Assembly: GCA_021811265.1 (NCBI GenBank)
Contig: JAJZPH010000002.1
Location: forward strand, 14,821 to 78,820
Direction: 5' to 3'
Source: a bacterium
GTDB taxonomy: Bacteria > Chlamydiota > Chlamydiia > Chlamydiales > SM23-39
DNA: 64,000 nt
Within the stretch, counting starts at the first letter, position 1; every line of letters starts with the position of its first letter. Shown piece by piece: positions 24,795 through 29,118 of this stretch. The notes beneath the pieces were generated by a model. It worked only from the letters and a program-made list of their open reading frames with translations, had not been told where the DNA came from and ran no database searches. The position numbers were made by a program, and so were the translations under genes.

Positions 24795-27700
24795 AGGAGT
24801 TAAAGGAGTCGATGGATTCATCATAATCTCTTTGGAGTCCGGGTGTTCCTGCATGATCTCTAAAGTAATCTTCCTGGTTTTCTGAAACGGTTTTCATGTC
24901 TTTATAGGAATTGATGATGTGCGGACGAATGAAGATAACCAGGTTGTCTCGTGATTGGTTTTTTTGCGTTTCTGAAAAAGCAACGCCTAGCCATGGGAGC
25001 CCCCCTAAACAGGGAATGCCTGTTTTGGACCTGGTTTTGGTCTCCAGGGCCATGCCGCTTAAGATCAAAAAATTGCGGTTGGGGATGTGCACGGTGGTGT
25101 TCATCGTTGTTTTGGTGCTTGTAATTCCTGTAATAGAAGCTGAGTTTAAAGTAACCGTAGCACCCGATGGAGTTGCGGGAACGGTGGAGTTTTCCATGAT
25201 GATGGTCAGGGTAACTACATCGGTATTTCCAAGAAAAGGAGTGAGAGAGAGGTTCATGCCAATGTCGCGATATTCGATGTTTGTAGAAGCAGAACTATTG
25301 GCTCCAGATGTAGAGATGGCAGATCCCACAAAGGGAACGTTTCTTCCGATGAAAATGGTGGATGTTTTGCTATCCTGCGTCAAGATTTTGGGCGTCATGA
25401 CAATGCTCGTCTCGGAGTCTTGTTGAAGTGCTACAATAAGCGATCCGAGCGAAAGGTAGGATTTTCCTTTGTGCATGATGATGTCGCCGATGACTCCTAA
25501 GTCAAATCCATTTGTAAAGGTGAGCATGGAATTGGCGTTGGGGGTAGTACCAGTATTATTCAAACTATTGAGGCCAACGGGAAAAGCACCGGAGGGCTGA
25601 CTGGATGGGACAGAACCGGCAGGCGGAACGGGAAGGTTGGAGAGGCTTCCTGCGAATTTATTTTTATATTGTAGGTGGCTTCCCCAATCGAGACCAAAAT
25701 CCATCAGATTGTTCAGGGTAGTTTCAATGACCAGCATTTCGACAAAGACCTGTTTTAAGGGAATGTCGAGATTCTTGATGAGCTCTTTGAGCCTAGTCAT
25801 TGTCTCTTGATCTCCGGAACAGAGAAGAGAGTTGGTCACCTGGATCCATTGGACGGAGTTGATCGAGCTGAGAAGAGTGTCTTTTACGTTGGCGTTCGAC
25901 TTGATCAGGTCGGTGGCGATTTGGCGCAAGGCTGCCTGAATCTCATCTCCTTTGTGGTATTGGAGTTTATAGACAAGAAAGCTGGTATTGTCGATGGGTT
26001 CGATCGATTCGGTGGGGGCACCTGTTCCTTGAGGAACGTCGAAGGTCGCAAGGAGGTTTTTGATTTCGGTAATTGATTTTTCATCGCCCGTAAAAATGAG
26101 CGATTGGGTGTTGTCTGCCCACTTGACGCTTACAATTGCATTGTAGAGAGTGCGGTTGGAAAATCCTGCAGTTTGCAGGTGAGAAGCAAAATCCTTCAAA
26201 ATGCTTTCCAAAGCAGGACCTGTGAGAAATTGCGGTTTGTAGACAAAGAATGCGTTGGGTTTTGCAAACTCTTCTCCCGTAGTAATGTCAAATTTATCGA
26301 CGAGAGGTTTTACTTTTTCCAAAGCTTCTGGGGCTCCTGTAAATAAAAGCGATTGGGAAAGAGCGTCATATTTCCCGCTTGTTAGGGCTTCGATAAAATC
26401 TGTGTCTGAGCTTCCCGATTGTTTTAGATCTGCAGCAATGGAATTTAAAGCTGTCGTGATCTGCTGGGGGTTGCCGCTGCGGATGCGATAGACCCAGATG
26501 GTCGATTTTGCTCCGGGAGCCCCTTTGGATACATCGATCGTTTTAATCAGCTGTTCGATTTTGGCAAGAGCAGCTTCTGTTCCTGTAAATACAAGTGAGT
26601 TGGTGGATTCTACCTGTTTGATGCTTTGAATGGACGCAATGAGTTCGGGGTCGGCAAGATTGGACTTTTGCAAATTGTTAGATATTTCCTTGAGAGAACT
26701 TTCGATTTGAGCTGCAGAAACATACTTGGGCTCATACATAAAAAACTTAGTATGGGGCGAGGCCTCTTTTCTCTGGATATCATATTGTGCAATGAGCTGC
26801 TTTGCCTCTTCGATTGCCGTTGGATCTCCTGCGAGAAGAAGAGAGTTGGTCTCTTTGATCCATTTGATGTTTTCGATCAGTTTGATCAAGGCGGGGTTTT
26901 CGATTTGTTGCGTTTGGAGTTTGGAGACAAACTTGTCGAGATCTTCTTCGATGATATCTCCGGAAACGTGTTGTAATTTATAGAGGAAGTAGGCGCCCTT
27001 TTCAAGGGCTGTTTTTTTAGTGGAGATGTCAAACTCTTGAAGGATATCTTTTACTCTCGCGAGGCTTGCTTTGGTTCCTGAAAAGAGAAAAGACTGGGAG
27101 TCTTCGATCCACTTCATGGTGTTCAAGCAGGAGATAAGGTCCAAAGCAGAAATGTCAGATTTATTCAGATGCTCTGCGACATTTTGAAGGTAGTGTTCCA
27201 GCGCTACTTTGGAAGCAAATTGAGGGCGATAGATGAAAAAGTTGGCCTCTTTTTCTGTAGGTTCTCCTGGAAGGTCCATCCCTTTTAATAGAGACTCGAC
27301 GCGCTTGAGAGAGGCGTCGTCGCCAGTAAAAACAAGGGCATTGGCAGAAGAGACCCATTGAATGCTTCGGATGGTTTGCAAAAAAGAGGGGTCGGTAAGA
27401 CGCGCCTCTTCTAGGTTTTTTGTGATGTCGAGCATCGACTGGTAGAGTTTTGCGCCAGAAATGTTTTGTGGCTTATAGACTAAAAACTGATCTCTTGAGG
27501 GGCGTTTGTCCTGCTGCACTTTGTGCTGCGATGCATCGATATCAAATGAGGGAAGCATCGATTGCAGATCTTTGAGAGTGGCGCCCTCTCCCATGAAAAG
27601 TAGAGAGGTGGTTTCGGGAATATATTTTGCACTTTGAATGGCCTCGAACAAAGAAGGATTGTCGATTCCCGATTTTTTTAAATTTTCCTCCATGGTTTTG

Positions 27701-29118
27701 AGCGCTTGGAGAATCTCGGCATGAGGAGCATTTTGGATCTTGTAAATGAAGAAGGTTGCCTGTCCAATATGCTGCACGGAGAGAGGAATTTCTAAGTCGA
27801 TGTTGGCAAGCAGCTCTTTAATCTTTGCGATTGTTTGCTTGTCTGCGCTAAAGAGAAGAGAGCCGGTGGAGGGGATGAGTTTGACTTCATTCAATGCAAT
27901 GAGCAGTGCTTTATCAGCTAAGGAAGATCCTTTAAGATTTTCCGCAATCTCCTTCAGAGTGAGTTGCACGTTCTCCACTTTTTGGTGCATCGGCTTGTAG
28001 GTAAAAAATGTCGCTCCTTCCATCTGCGCTGCCTCTTTGGAAAGGCTGTCGATGGAAGAGAGGATTTCTTGGATTTTTTTAATAGTGTCGGGCGTGCCGA
28101 TGAAGAGAATCGAATGGGTCTCTTTGATATAACGAGACGAAGCAATAGAGTCGACAAGTTGTGAGTCTCCATAGCCGCTCTCTTCTAGGTTTTTGGCGAT
28201 GCTGTTCAATGTTCCTTCTACCTCTTTGGCAGATCGGTACTGAATTTTGTAGATGAAGAGGTTTTCATTTTTCAAAGGAAGCTTTGTTTTTGTTTTGGAG
28301 GCGTTGTCGAGGGTGTTTAAGATGGCAAGCGCCTTTTCAATCAAAGGCGGTGTGGAGACGATGTAGATAGAGGAAGAGGGGGGTTGGGGAATCAAGAGAA
28401 AAGGGGTCCCCTCGATCATGGGCGCCATTAACTGTCGCGTAAGCTCGATCAGAGTTTCTGGGTGGCTCTGTTTGGCCTGATATGTTTCAATCTCATAGAT
28501 GCTATGGGGAGCATCGATCATATGGATGATTTCGGCGATCTTGTCGATGTTGCTGGGAATGTCGCTGATCAACAACTGTTTTGTTTCTGGAGAAACTTCT
28601 AAAAGTGCGCTTGTAGAAAGCATGGGGCGTACGAGGTTGGCAATCGAGTCGGGCTTAGCGCTTTGTATTCTGAACAGGCGGGTTACGATGGGAATGGAAG
28701 GATCGAGCGTTTGTCCTTCTTGCGTTAAGGGAGCAGCTCCTTTGACGTCAGAGCTTTTGTGAATGACTAGGTTGCTATTTTCTTCAAGAAGAGAAAGGCC
28801 GTGGATGCGCAAGACCTGAATGAGTGTAGATAAGACGCGCGCGGTGGGGATGGGTTCTTCCGAAACGATCGTGACGGGAAATTGGAGATCGGCTTCATCG
28901 AAAACGAAATTGACGTTGCAAATTTTACTGATGAATCGCACATACTCCAACATTACCACATTTTTAAAGTTGATAGTATAGGTTTGCTGCTTTACAGAAG
29001 AAGAGGGATGTAACAGATTTTGCAACGGATGTTCTTTAGCCTCTTCGGCATGTCCGAACGAATGTTGGAGACAAAAAGCCGCAAGAATAAAAATTAAGAG
29101 AAGTAATTTTTGTTTCAT
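24772..29118 (-). CDS. sctC: T3SS outer-membrane secretin SctC (CdsC), greatly expanded N-terminal region
   Basis: Signal peptide MKQKLLLLIFILAAFCLQHSFG at the internal Met (the track ORF starts at 29217). N0/N1-like domains come first, then about 10 tandem ~84-aa repeats. The C-terminal secretin domain reads VFVEMLVIETT...IEYRDIGMNL...GIPCLGGLPWLGVAFS...NLVIFIRPHII. Confidence 0.9.
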   Translation of the reverse strand: MKQKLLLLIFILAAFCLQHSFGHAEEAKEHPLQNLLHPSSSVKQQTYTINFKNVVMLEYVRFISKICNVNFVFDEADLQFPVTIVSEEPIPTARVLSTLIQVLRIHGLSLLEENSNLVIHKSSDVKGAAPLTQEGQTLDPSIPIVTRLFRIQSAKPDSIANLVRPMLSTSALLEVSPETKQLLISDIPSNIDKIAEIIHMIDAPHSIYEIETYQAKQSHPETLIELTRQLMAPMIEGTPFLLIPQPPSSSIYIVSTPPLIEKALAILNTLDNASKTKTKLPLKNENLFIYKIQYRSAKEVEGTLNSIAKNLEESGYGDSQLVDSIASSRYIKETHSILFIGTPDTIKKIQEILSSIDSLSKEAAQMEGATFFTYKPMHQKVENVQLTLKEIAENLKGSSLADKALLIALNEVKLIPSTGSLLFSADKQTIAKIKELLANIDLEIPLSVQHIGQATFFIYKIQNAPHAEILQALKTMEENLKKSGIDNPSLFEAIQSAKYIPETTSLLFMGEGATLKDLQSMLPSFDIDASQHKVQQDKRPSRDQFLVYKPQNISGAKLYQSMLDITKNLEEARLTDPSFLQTIRSIQWVSSANALVFTGDDASLKRVESLLKGMDLPGEPTEKEANFFIYRPQFASKVALEHYLQNVAEHLNKSDISALDLISCLNTMKWIEDSQSFLFSGTKASLARVKDILQEFDISTKKTALEKGAYFLYKLQHVSGDIIEEDLDKFVSKLQTQQIENPALIKLIENIKWIKETNSLLLAGDPTAIEEAKQLIAQYDIQRKEASPHTKFFMYEPKYVSAAQIESSLKEISNNLQKSNLADPELIASIQSIKQVESTNSLVFTGTEAALAKIEQLIKTIDVSKGAPGAKSTIWVYRIRSGNPQQITTALNSIAADLKQSGSSDTDFIEALTSGKYDALSQSLLFTGAPEALEKVKPLVDKFDITTGEEFAKPNAFFVYKPQFLTGPALESILKDFASHLQTAGFSNRTLYNAIVSVKWADNTQSLIFTGDEKSITEIKNLLATFDVPQGTGAPTESIEPIDNTSFLVYKLQYHKGDEIQAALRQIATDLIKSNANVKDTLLSSINSVQWIQVTNSLLCSGDQETMTRLKELIKNLDIPLKQVFVEMLVIETTLNNLMDFGLDWGSHLQYKNKFAGSLSNLPVPPAGSVPSSQPSGAFPVGLNSLNNTGTTPNANSMLTFTNGFDLGVIGDIIMHKGKSYLSLGSLIVALQQDSETSIVMTPKILTQDSKTSTIFIGRNVPFVGSAISTSGANSSASTNIEYRDIGMNLSLTPFLGNTDVVTLTIIMENSTVPATPSGATVTLNSASITGITSTKTTMNTTVHIPNRNFLILSGMALETKTRSKTGIPCLGGLPWLGVAFSETQKNQSRDNLVIFIRPHIINSYKDMKTVSENQEDYFRDHAGTPGLQRDYDESIDSFNSYEEEEAG
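25762..28266 (-). repeat. about 10 tandem protein-level repeats (~84 aa each) inside sctC
   Basis: Each unit begins with a hydrophobic (F/Y)(F/L)(I/V)YK(I/P/L)Q-type strand: NLFIYKIQY, TFFTYKPMH, TFFIYKIQN, QFLVYKPQN, NFFIYRPQF, AYFLYKLQH, KFFMYEPKY, TIWVYRIRS, AFFVYKPQF, SFLVYKLQY. Each ends ...NSLL(F)xGxxxxIxxIKxLIxxxDI. Confidence 0.8.

Follow-up and report, generated by a model that had tools for sequence, protein, structure and literature searches.

The window, by which we mean the whole 64,000-nucleotide stretch of DNA that was analyzed, carries on its minus strand a chlamydial type III secretion system (T3SS) cluster that includes a secretin gene:

39069-40964, minus strand: cdsD
38099-39052, minus strand: cdsE/F/G-like
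37441-38094, minus strand: cdsL
36112-37434, minus strand: cdsN
35599-36102, minus strand: cdsO
34353..35654, minus strand: CdsP, putative needle-length ruler of the SctP/CT671 type (gene position, AF2, literature)
33256-34347, minus strand: cdsQ
31643-33217, minus strand: pkn5-like kinase
24772..29139, minus strand: secretin gene CdsC/SctC, T2SS-like type (ORF, Pfam, NCBIfam, public gene call)
23802..24794, minus strand: conserved gene (~315-330 aa), possible secretin accessory factor; it overlaps the secretin stop codon, and yidD comes next

Apart from the secretin, the cluster spans 31643..40964. The gene order, cdsD-E-F-G-L-N-O-P-Q-pkn5-secretin, matches that of CT664-CT674 in Chlamydia trachomatis. 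Most related loci on contigs that extend sufficiently far upstream retain it (the exceptions are L084, L053, and L029), and the full cdsO-cdsP-cdsQ-secretin set is found in 45 loci. CdsP is encoded five genes upstream of the secretin, between sctO and sctQ, and the gene upstream of cdsP has a YscO-like Pfam match in loci L085 and L086.

Secretins are ring channels of 12 to 16 subunits in the outer membrane. The one encoded here lies in an unbroken open frame of 1481 codons (24772..29217, minus strand). The public gene call in GCA_027452425.1 starts at 29139 and yields 1455 aa, the likely signal-peptide Met is read at 29118, and the protein is thus 1448-1455 aa long, depending on the start. Its domains, in order from the N terminus, are as follows:

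29047..29118, minus strand: probable signal peptide MKQKLLLLIFILAAFCLQHSFGHA, read from the sequence
28768..28974, minus strand: N0 domain, aa 82-150 (Pfam PF21305, E=4e-9)
28297..28692, minus strand: two short N1/N2-type domains (~63-68 aa), aa ~176-238 and ~240-307
28018..28269, minus strand: unit 1, aa 317-400; position kept in nearly all homologues
27763..28017, minus strand: unit 2, aa 401-485; variable middle zone
27496..27762, minus strand: unit 3, aa 486-574; variable middle zone
27250..27495, minus strand: unit 4, aa 575-656; variable middle zone
26998..27249, minus strand: unit 5, aa 657-740; unit type amplified in tandem in the longest relatives
26755..26997, minus strand: unit 6, aa 741-821; position conserved
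26509..26754, minus strand: unit 7, aa 822-903; position conserved
26260..26508, minus strand: unit 8, aa 904-986; position conserved
25990..26259, minus strand: unit 9, aa 987-1076; position conserved
25762..25989, minus strand: unit 10, aa 1077-1152; N3 position, adjoins the secretin domain
24913..25431, minus strand: secretin beta-barrel/gate domain (PF00263), aa 1263-1435 (Pfam E=2e-33; model positions 1-168 of 169)

With PF00263 at the C terminus and N0 followed by beta-alpha-beta-beta-alpha N domains, the protein has the makeup of the secretin superfamily, and its periplasmic domains number 13. A phmmer search aligns the secretin with chain residues 9-175 of 4e9j, the crystal structure of the XcpQ N-terminal domains, a stretch that comprises N0-N1; N1 is placed on this match together with a weak unit-HMM match at aa 210-238, and the boundaries and beta-alpha-beta-beta-alpha pattern of the putative N2 come from sequence reading only, with no hit. 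Both short domains lack an extra helix that is present in all ten units.

The ten consecutive units occupy aa 317-1152 (window 25762-28269), between N0/N1/N2 and the secretin domain. The first-pass annotation had counted the same ten N-domain-like units and placed them at 25762-28266, which corresponds to aa 318-1152 of the open frame, and its reading holds. Each unit is 76-90 aa long, the whole alignment contains one single-residue indel, and the motifs that it had quoted (FFIYK.Q, W(I/V)...NSL(L/V)F(T/S)G, and a terminal D(I/V/L)) are all seen there. When a profile of nine units was searched against the tenth, scores were 61-94 bits (E 4e-21 to 3e-31), whereas 200 shuffles per unit reached ≤9.3 bits, and Pfam Secretin_N (PF03958) matches the units in 9 stretches at E=2.3e-72. 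Pairwise identity between units is 19-37% (mean, 29%), and at the DNA level no tandem array is found in the unit region, only short matches of ≤71% identity spaced by unit-length multiples. Thus, the repeats are old and, as the first-pass annotation had concluded, not a product of assembly. An AF2 model gives units 8-10 a beta-alpha-alpha-beta-beta-alpha topology at pLDDT 85-92, and its top Foldseek matches are GspD chains that comprise N1-N3 plus the secretin domain (E~1e-21), to which the modeled units and secretin domain align along their entire length. Based on these models, we are confident that the modeled units have the secretin N-domain fold. The linkers between units are short.

By sequence, the protein is of the GspD, or T2SS-like, type rather than a classical SctC, a refinement of the earlier view of it as an injectisome secretin. 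The NCBIfam GspD equivalog TIGR02517 scores 390.8 bits (cut-off, 351.35), a sum over 5 stretches that include the repeated N domains, and the SctC equivalog TIGR02516 scores 107.1 bits (cut-off, 238.45). The latter low score is expected because all chlamydial NF-T3SS carry a T2SS-like secretin (PMC3459982). The best solved relatives are GspD/XcpQ (phmmer E=3.7e-39 for 5wln but only 6.6e-8 for InvG), and Foldseek and phmmer matches of the secretin comprise GspD, PilQ, InvG, and pIV. Among the neighboring ORFs scanned, no T2SS genes (gspE/F/G) were found, and all identified secretion-system neighbors belong to the T3SS; the N0-N1-N2-N3 architecture and gspC/E/F/G linkage of GspD are not those of the window secretin. 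Given a GspD-like secretin inside a conserved chlamydial T3SS cluster, the protein is therefore CdsC/SctC of the chlamydial injectisome, in agreement with the published view of a T2SS-type secretin.

Three known systems are instructive for comparison. C. trachomatis CdsC (SctC, CT674) shares with the window protein its cluster position after cdsQ-pkn5, a T2SS-like secretin core, a length atypical for a T3SS secretin (PMC4682100), and a junction motif, D(I/L)P(L/P)KQV, ahead of the secretin domain. However, CdsC has 921 aa (close to the ~920 aa that the first-pass annotation had correctly set against ~1450 aa here), and its junction lies at aa 591 rather than aa 1152; where it has a unique 250-aa hydrophilic N-terminal domain and classical N domains (PMC4682100), the protein described here carries ten N-type units in tandem. 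GspD/XcpQ/PulD (PDB 5wln, 5wq7, 5zdh) provide the best sequence and fold matches, with N0, beta-alpha-beta-beta-alpha N domains, and a secretin barrel, yet GspD has four periplasmic domains (N0-N3), ~650 aa, and gspC/E/F/G as partners, whereas the window protein has 13 such domains, ~1450 aa, and a T3SS cluster around it; a usual secretin has one N3 domain in the place where we count ten predicted ring-building N domains. The precedent for added rings is PilQ of Thermus thermophilus, a T4P/DNA-uptake secretin that bridges a periplasm of unusual width by means of additional beta-alpha-beta-beta-alpha rings in its stack (N0-N5). PilQ has six rings, compared with 13 domains here and up to ~24 in relatives, and we know of no description of copy-number variation between species or of ruler coupling for it.

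The number of units is far from fixed. Across ~200 homologues from uncultured Chlamydiota, it ranges from 6 to 21: the 120 homologues taken from databases have 7-21 units, and the 80 genomes at species level have 6-14. Protein length rises with unit count. Units 1 and 6-10 are positionally constant, the variation being confined to the middle units; unit 10 is the most conserved, with 80% identity among orthologues. In expanded relatives, neighboring middle units are 60-95% identical and visible as DNA tandem arrays, which points to recent tandem duplication of middle units in some of them.

Does any other component of the machine change with unit number? CdsP has an N-part that is variable and rich in K/E/P, followed by a conserved, putatively T3S4-like C-terminal domain of ~125 aa; the family ranges from 270 to 591 aa in total and from 190 to 575 aa in the N-part, and the conserved domain is always C-terminal. 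The AF2 model of this C terminus (pLDDT 87.5) has as its top two matches among 350,542 PDB chains the PscP substrate-switch domain 5cuk (prob 0.97, TM 0.62) and the FliK C-terminal domain 2rrl (prob 0.80), at a weak E of 0.086; Pfam Flg_hook matches are marginal (6 of 45 CdsP members, best E=0.033), and no sequence match was found in the PDB. In its sctO-sctQ position and its low-complexity variable N-part, CdsP resembles the SctP/YscP-FliK rulers, and these weak structural matches tentatively point the same way. Nans et al. regard CdsP as a tape measure, and needles are known to lengthen linearly with their rulers (PMC4682100).

Across the 45 loci, secretin unit number and CdsP length are correlated (Spearman 0.68, p=3.6e-7), with an OLS slope of 24.5±3.1 aa of CdsP per unit; CdsP start codons were inferred, and of six checks against gene calls, five agreed. 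Phylogenetic independent contrasts give a slope of 22.9 (r=0.81, p=1.5e-11), with the same direction in 31 of 38, and without extremes the slope is 19-24 (r=0.58-0.76). About half of the variance is explained, and some lineages deviate (e.g., L010 and L011, where a 10-unit secretin goes with a CdsP of 324 aa). The lengths of CdsD, F, G, L, O, Q, Pkn5, and the downstream gene have no significant relation to unit number; for CdsN, the rank correlation is nominally significant (rho 0.38, p=0.037), with a slope of just 0.4 aa per unit. The co-variation is a new observation, and within the cluster it is found for CdsP alone; we know of no earlier report of a ruler whose length tracks secretin ring number. 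Journet and colleagues (2003) reportedly found ~1.9 Å per ruler residue, at which 23-25 aa would amount to 4.4-4.7 nm; the Thermus PilQ channel, with six rings in ~35 nm, implies a similar spacing between rings.

In total, these observations are consistent with a mechanism, which we think is probably correct, in which the T3SS secretin uses ten ring-building N domains to form a stacked tube with spacers in its middle and CdsP lengthens to match. Each unit would contribute one ring to the assembled oligomer, and the ten rings would stack into a long periplasmic tube, each adding roughly 4 nm. Unit 1, the outermost, and units 6-10, the five nearest the pore, would be the fixed parts, and the middle units would be spacers whose number is altered through tandem duplication or loss. 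Since the needle must traverse the tube, CdsP would gain ~23-25 residues per added ring, and this lengthening would keep the needle protruding past the outer membrane. Ruler length would then follow a periplasmic component, through how many rings the secretin has, and not demands from outside the cell, for example the length of LPS or adhesins. The co-variation also gives indirect support to the prediction that the secretin physically belongs to the injectisome basal body.

The first-pass annotation had left open a long conduit or a non-stacking role. Because unit number co-varies with CdsP length, stacked rings and a longer conduit are now favored, with stacking itself something that we infer. 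Could the units instead remain unstacked, as a flexible or folded-back array that binds peptidoglycan, the inner-membrane ring, or other partners or that serves as an elastic tether for the basal body? The AF2 monomer has a pTM of 0.38 and is uninformative on domain arrangement. At ~4 nm per unit, the neck alone would measure ~45-55 nm here and >90 nm in the 21-unit relative, compared with 34 nm for the whole C. trachomatis basal body (PMC4682100); we found no documentation of periplasms of such width in the papers that we read, and full stacking in the extreme relatives would require an implausibly wide one. The C. trachomatis basal body also shifts from 34 to 29 nm via its periplasmic domains (PMC4682100), and thus elasticity is a known property of the chlamydial injectisome. 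We nonetheless regard an unstacked array as unlikely: the units share fold and Pfam family with ring-forming N domains, their linkers are short and their positions conserved, and their number tracks the needle ruler at about the residues per ring expected for linear extension, whereas a binding role predicts no such relation.

It is far less probable still that the protein is a T2SS GspD whose T3SS neighborhood is incidental. The two equivalog scores, the nearest solved structures (all GspD/XcpQ), and the GspD/PulD labels that some sources give to homologues point that way, but the GspD score is added up over repeated N domains, several homologues are labeled "type III secretion protein C" at JGI, and the absence of gspE/F/G from the scanned ORFs, the cdsQ/pkn5 linkage in most sufficiently long loci, the 45 four-gene sets, the published T2SS-derived secretin, and the co-variation with a T3SS ruler all argue for the injectisome. 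As for mis-assembly or gene decay, the source is a metagenome-assembled genome, and repeats are prone to mis-assembly. That reading is effectively refuted by the intact ORF, the divergence of the units and the lack of a DNA tandem array, an identical protein on 7 contigs, and a 71%-identical orthologue with ten units in unchanged order; among 29 ten-unit orthologues, per-position unit identity is 42-80%.

More broadly, we posit, at somewhat better than even confidence, that the chlamydial injectisome is an adjustable-length machine in which gain and loss of spacer rings set the periplasmic span and the SctP ruler co-evolves such that protrusion stays constant. If this is true, the family would provide a set of natural length variants against which the ruler model could be calibrated, and envelope and periplasm widths would differ greatly among environmental Chlamydiota.

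The region at 25762-28266 belongs to a single long open reading frame (ORF) of 1481 codons (24772..29217, minus strand), in which it encodes amino acids (aa) 318-1152. A signal-peptide-like start (Met-Lys-Gln-Lys-Leu5...) lies at codon 34, and the public gene call for the secretin, in the Chlamydiota metagenome-assembled genome (MAG) GCA_027452425.1 (contig DAIEDS010000010.1), is 1455 aa long; the first-pass annotation had set about 1450 aa against about 920 aa for C. trachomatis CdsC, which measures 921 aa (PMC4682100). Pfam assigns aa 82-150 to an N0 domain (PF21305) and aa 1263-1435 to the secretin pore domain (PF00263). 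Between N0 and the first repeat unit are two shorter stretches of ~63-68 aa that we read as N1/N2-type domains, the N2 from inspection of the sequence by eye; together with N0 and ten repeat units, these putative domains would bring the periplasmic total to 13.

When the secretin is cut at its recurring (F/Y)(F/L)(I/V)YK motif, ten consecutive units of 76-90 aa result, and they align with one single-residue indel only. Identity between units is 19-37% (mean, 29%), and no adjacent pair exceeds 32%. Each unit is nonetheless recognized by a profile built from the other nine at 61-94 bits, versus 9.3 bits at most among 200 shuffles per unit, and Pfam matches Secretin_N (PF03958) over nine stretches (E=2.3e-72). 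Tandem Repeats Finder and a direct-repeat search detected no DNA-level tandem array in the window's secretin gene; hence the repeats are of ancient origin and did not arise through faulty assembly. Based on the profile scores, the Pfam match and this ancient, nonartefactual character, the repeat is far beyond chance, and the earlier count of ten units, diverged at the DNA level, holds. AlphaFold2, run with a 43-sequence alignment on the stretch from unit 8 through the pore domain (aa 904-1481), gives units 8-10 a pLDDT of 85-92 and a strand-helix-short helix-strand-strand-helix order; as modeled, this corresponds to the N-domain fold that builds secretin rings, with one helix added. In a Foldseek search of the PDB, full GspD chains come first, matched from N1 to N3 and over the secretin domain (E about 1e-21), and the injectisome secretin InvG comes behind them (1e-13); in the model, the likeness to secretin N domains extends to structure. 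The monomer has a pTM of 0.38 and carries no information on stacking.

To which machine does this secretin belong? By sequence, the nearest solved proteins are type II (T2SS) secretins (XcpQ 5wln, E=3.7e-39, versus 6.6e-8 for InvG). The NCBIfam GspD model scores 390.8 bits against a cut-off of 351.35, a score summed over five stretches, and the SctC model scores 107 bits, below its cut-off of 238. [quoted passage not shown]

12849-21416: kdpABC, NamZ exo-muramidase, pntB and GT10 fucosyltransferase, farther from cdsD
23408-23812 (-): yidD, following the ~315-330-aa gene
23802-24794 (-): gene of ~315-330 aa, overlapping the secretin stop codon
29356-30039 (-), 30202-30915 (-), 30934-31617 (+): three paralogous ORFs of 227-237 aa, between pkn5 and the secretin gene
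Upstream of the secretin, same strand: cdsD, three small cdsE/F/G-like genes, cdsL, the ATPase gene cdsN, cdsO, cdsP (34353-35654), cdsQ and a Pkn5-like kinase gene
41650-45941 (-), upstream of cdsD: genes for a 426-aa SseC-family (CopB/translocator-like) protein and a 532-aa protein, with small chaperone-sized ORFs; probably a translocon operon

This order, computed here, is that of C. trachomatis CT664-CT674. It recurs in most of 80 species-level genomes with contigs that reach far enough upstream (the best 80 of 186 loci scanned, all of them MAGs of uncultured Chlamydiota, some mislabeled Verrucomicrobia); the exceptions are L053, L029 and the later-added L084. All chlamydial nonflagellar T3SS have a T2SS-like secretin (Abby and Rocha, PMC3459982), and the 921-aa CdsC of C. 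trachomatis is atypical and clusters with type II secretins (Nans et al., PMC4682100). Based on synteny and these two studies, the protein is CdsC/SctC in role and GspD-like in descent, as its first assignment to an injectisome had it; the functional T2SS assignment suggested by the GspD match is rejected on the same grounds. Database names of homologues are generic ("secretin N-terminal domain-containing protein," "type III secretion protein C," "GspD/PulD").

Several neighbors deserve comment. In nearly all related loci examined, the ~315-330-aa gene comes immediately after the secretin gene; its product combines a signal/lipobox-like LFFFLCSC with a middle region of TPR-like appearance by eye and two C-terminal hydrophobic helices, and it has no Pfam match. 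It is a candidate for an accessory or pilotin-like partner of the secretin; the chlamydial T3SS has no known pilotin (Nans et al., PMC4682100). The Pkn5-like kinase carries a PP2C-like domain. The three small paralogous membrane proteins between it and the secretin have a common Inc-protein-like, C-terminal bilobed hydrophobic segment and no Pfam match in any of them, and this position carries no genes in the closest relative (L001). The L084 secretin (P0095, 15 units) does not adjoin T3SS genes; upstream of it (8079-9656, plus strand) is an odd hybrid protein of 525 aa, in which weak matches to secretin N0 and Secretin_N are fused to an IAT_beta (intimin/invasin) barrel.

The comparison of repeat number among orthologues that the first-pass annotation had proposed yields a range of 6-21 units: 7-21 by unit profile in the best 120 database homologues (1132-2266 aa) and 6-14 in those secretins of the 80 genome loci that are complete, mostly 8-10. 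Secretin length follows unit count. When every homologue unit is matched to the most similar of the ten units in the window's secretin, the arrays show positional orthology: almost all homologues retain unit 1 and units 6-10 in the same order, gain and loss are limited to the middle of the array, and the longest homologues have amplified unit-5-like copies. Among 29 ten-unit orthologues, mean identity is 80% for unit 10, which is nearest the pore domain, about 53% for units 6-9 and about 44% for units 1-5. Recent duplications are visible in expanded relatives, where neighboring middle units are 60-95% identical. Two of these have DNA tandem arrays inside the secretin gene with about 76% matches (L083, 15 units, 240 nt × 4.1 copies at 11360-12345; L082, 18 units, 225 nt × 8.2 copies at 1738-3631), which could be recent unit duplications or, in part, mis-assembly in MAGs.

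If every unit added a ring to a coaxial tube, the needle's periplasmic path would be longer, and the SctP-type ruler would therefore be expected to lengthen. The cdsP gene lies between cdsO and cdsQ, the positional equivalent of CT671/CdsP, which is treated as a ruler in the literature (PMC4682100); SctP ruler length sets needle length (PMC4682100). The N-terminal part of CdsP is K/E/P-rich and variable, and the last ~125 aa are conserved. An AlphaFold2 model of this C terminus (pLDDT, 87.5) has as its two best PDB structure matches, with weak E-values (0.086), the PscP substrate-switch domain (5cuk; probability 0.97, TM 0.62, 3.0 Å) and the FliK C-terminal domain (2rrl). Pfam Flg_hook is marginal, in 6 of 45 members, and a profile of the C terminus found no match among PDB sequences. 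In one subclade (L046, L068, L076, L078 and L081) there is room for an extra gene between cdsP and cdsQ; it is called in L081 (218 aa, no Pfam family) and is inferred in the other four from a cdsO-cdsQ spacing ~210-230 aa larger.

CdsP length does rise with unit number. The sample comprised 45 loci with a complete secretin and an identifiable cdsO-cdsP-cdsQ, including five of six loci (from the added series L081-L088) chosen for extreme unit numbers and by unit number only. Before these loci were added, crude stop-to-stop lengths gave a rho of 0.38 (p=0.023); start-codon-aware lengths, which replaced them and whose starts agree with independent gene calls in 5/6 loci, gave a Spearman coefficient of 0.68 (p=3.6e-7), a Pearson coefficient of 0.77 and an ordinary least-squares slope of 24.5±3.1 aa of CdsP per unit. 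Phylogenetic independent contrasts on a neighbor-joining tree of the secretin C terminus plus CdsQ (807 columns) returned a slope of 22.9 (r=0.81, p=1.5e-11), with 31/38 contrasts in the same direction (sign test, p=1e-4). The slope is 23.9 (r=0.76) with the 21-unit locus left out and 19.3 (r=0.58, p=6.5e-5) with the four most extreme loci left out. Gene-called CdsP lengths are 376 aa at 7 units, 490 and 537 at 12, 594 at 13, 611 at 15 and 700 at 21. The covariation is specific to CdsP: lengths of CdsD, F, G, L, O and Q have no significant relation to unit number, nor was one seen for Pkn5 (rho 0.11), though it is as variable as CdsP (sd, 77 aa), or for the conserved downstream gene (rho 0.15). 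For CdsN, the rank correlation reaches nominal significance (rho 0.38, p=0.037) at a slope of 0.4 aa per unit; its length thus does not scale with the array. A ruler residue reportedly spans about 1.9 Å (Journet et al. 2003). At that value, 23-25 aa per unit corresponds to about 4.4-4.7 nm, not far from the spacing between rings that follows from the Thermus PilQ channel (~35 nm long, six rings). C. trachomatis, with a CdsC of 921 aa and a CdsP of 283 aa (PMC4682100), sits at the short end of the trend on these lengths; its CdsC pore junction falls 561 residues nearer the N terminus than that of the window secretin.

The best reading of these observations is a modular injectisome of adjustable length, in which middle units would act as duplicable spacer rings between fixed end modules and the SctP ruler would follow the length of the tube. 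With full stacking, the predicted neck length is about 45-55 nm for the window secretin and >90 nm for the relative with 21 units; the whole C. trachomatis basal body is 34 nm (PMC4682100), and we found no published measurement of the envelope by which the predicted lengths could be judged. It is possible that the array is elastic or partly folded rather than fully stacked, which would agree with the contraction from 34 to 29 nm known for the chlamydial basal body (PMC4682100), but such an array does not by itself predict ruler covariation.

How does this secretin compare with known ones? C. trachomatis CdsC has the same role and no described repeat array; GspD is of common lineage and fold and has four periplasmic domains. 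The six rings of Thermus PilQ have been described as exceptional, and no known secretin would come close in length to one that has 13 to about 24 periplasmic domains. N-domain rings of secretins and SctP rulers are, each taken singly, well understood. The component parts are familiar; what is unfamiliar is the scale, the modular variation and the coupling to the ruler. In literature coverage that was incomplete, we found no description of a multirepeat chlamydial secretin array, its variation or its coupling to a ruler, and a paper on slime-nozzle secretins (PMC12475490) held nothing relevant on long N-domain arrays. Copy-number variation and CdsP covariation make it testable whether ruler measurement begins at the machine's base and runs through the periplasm, and they make envelope dimensions testable across the largely uncultured Chlamydiota, with a simple sequence-based predictor of injectisome/periplasm length: the number of units × about 4 nm.
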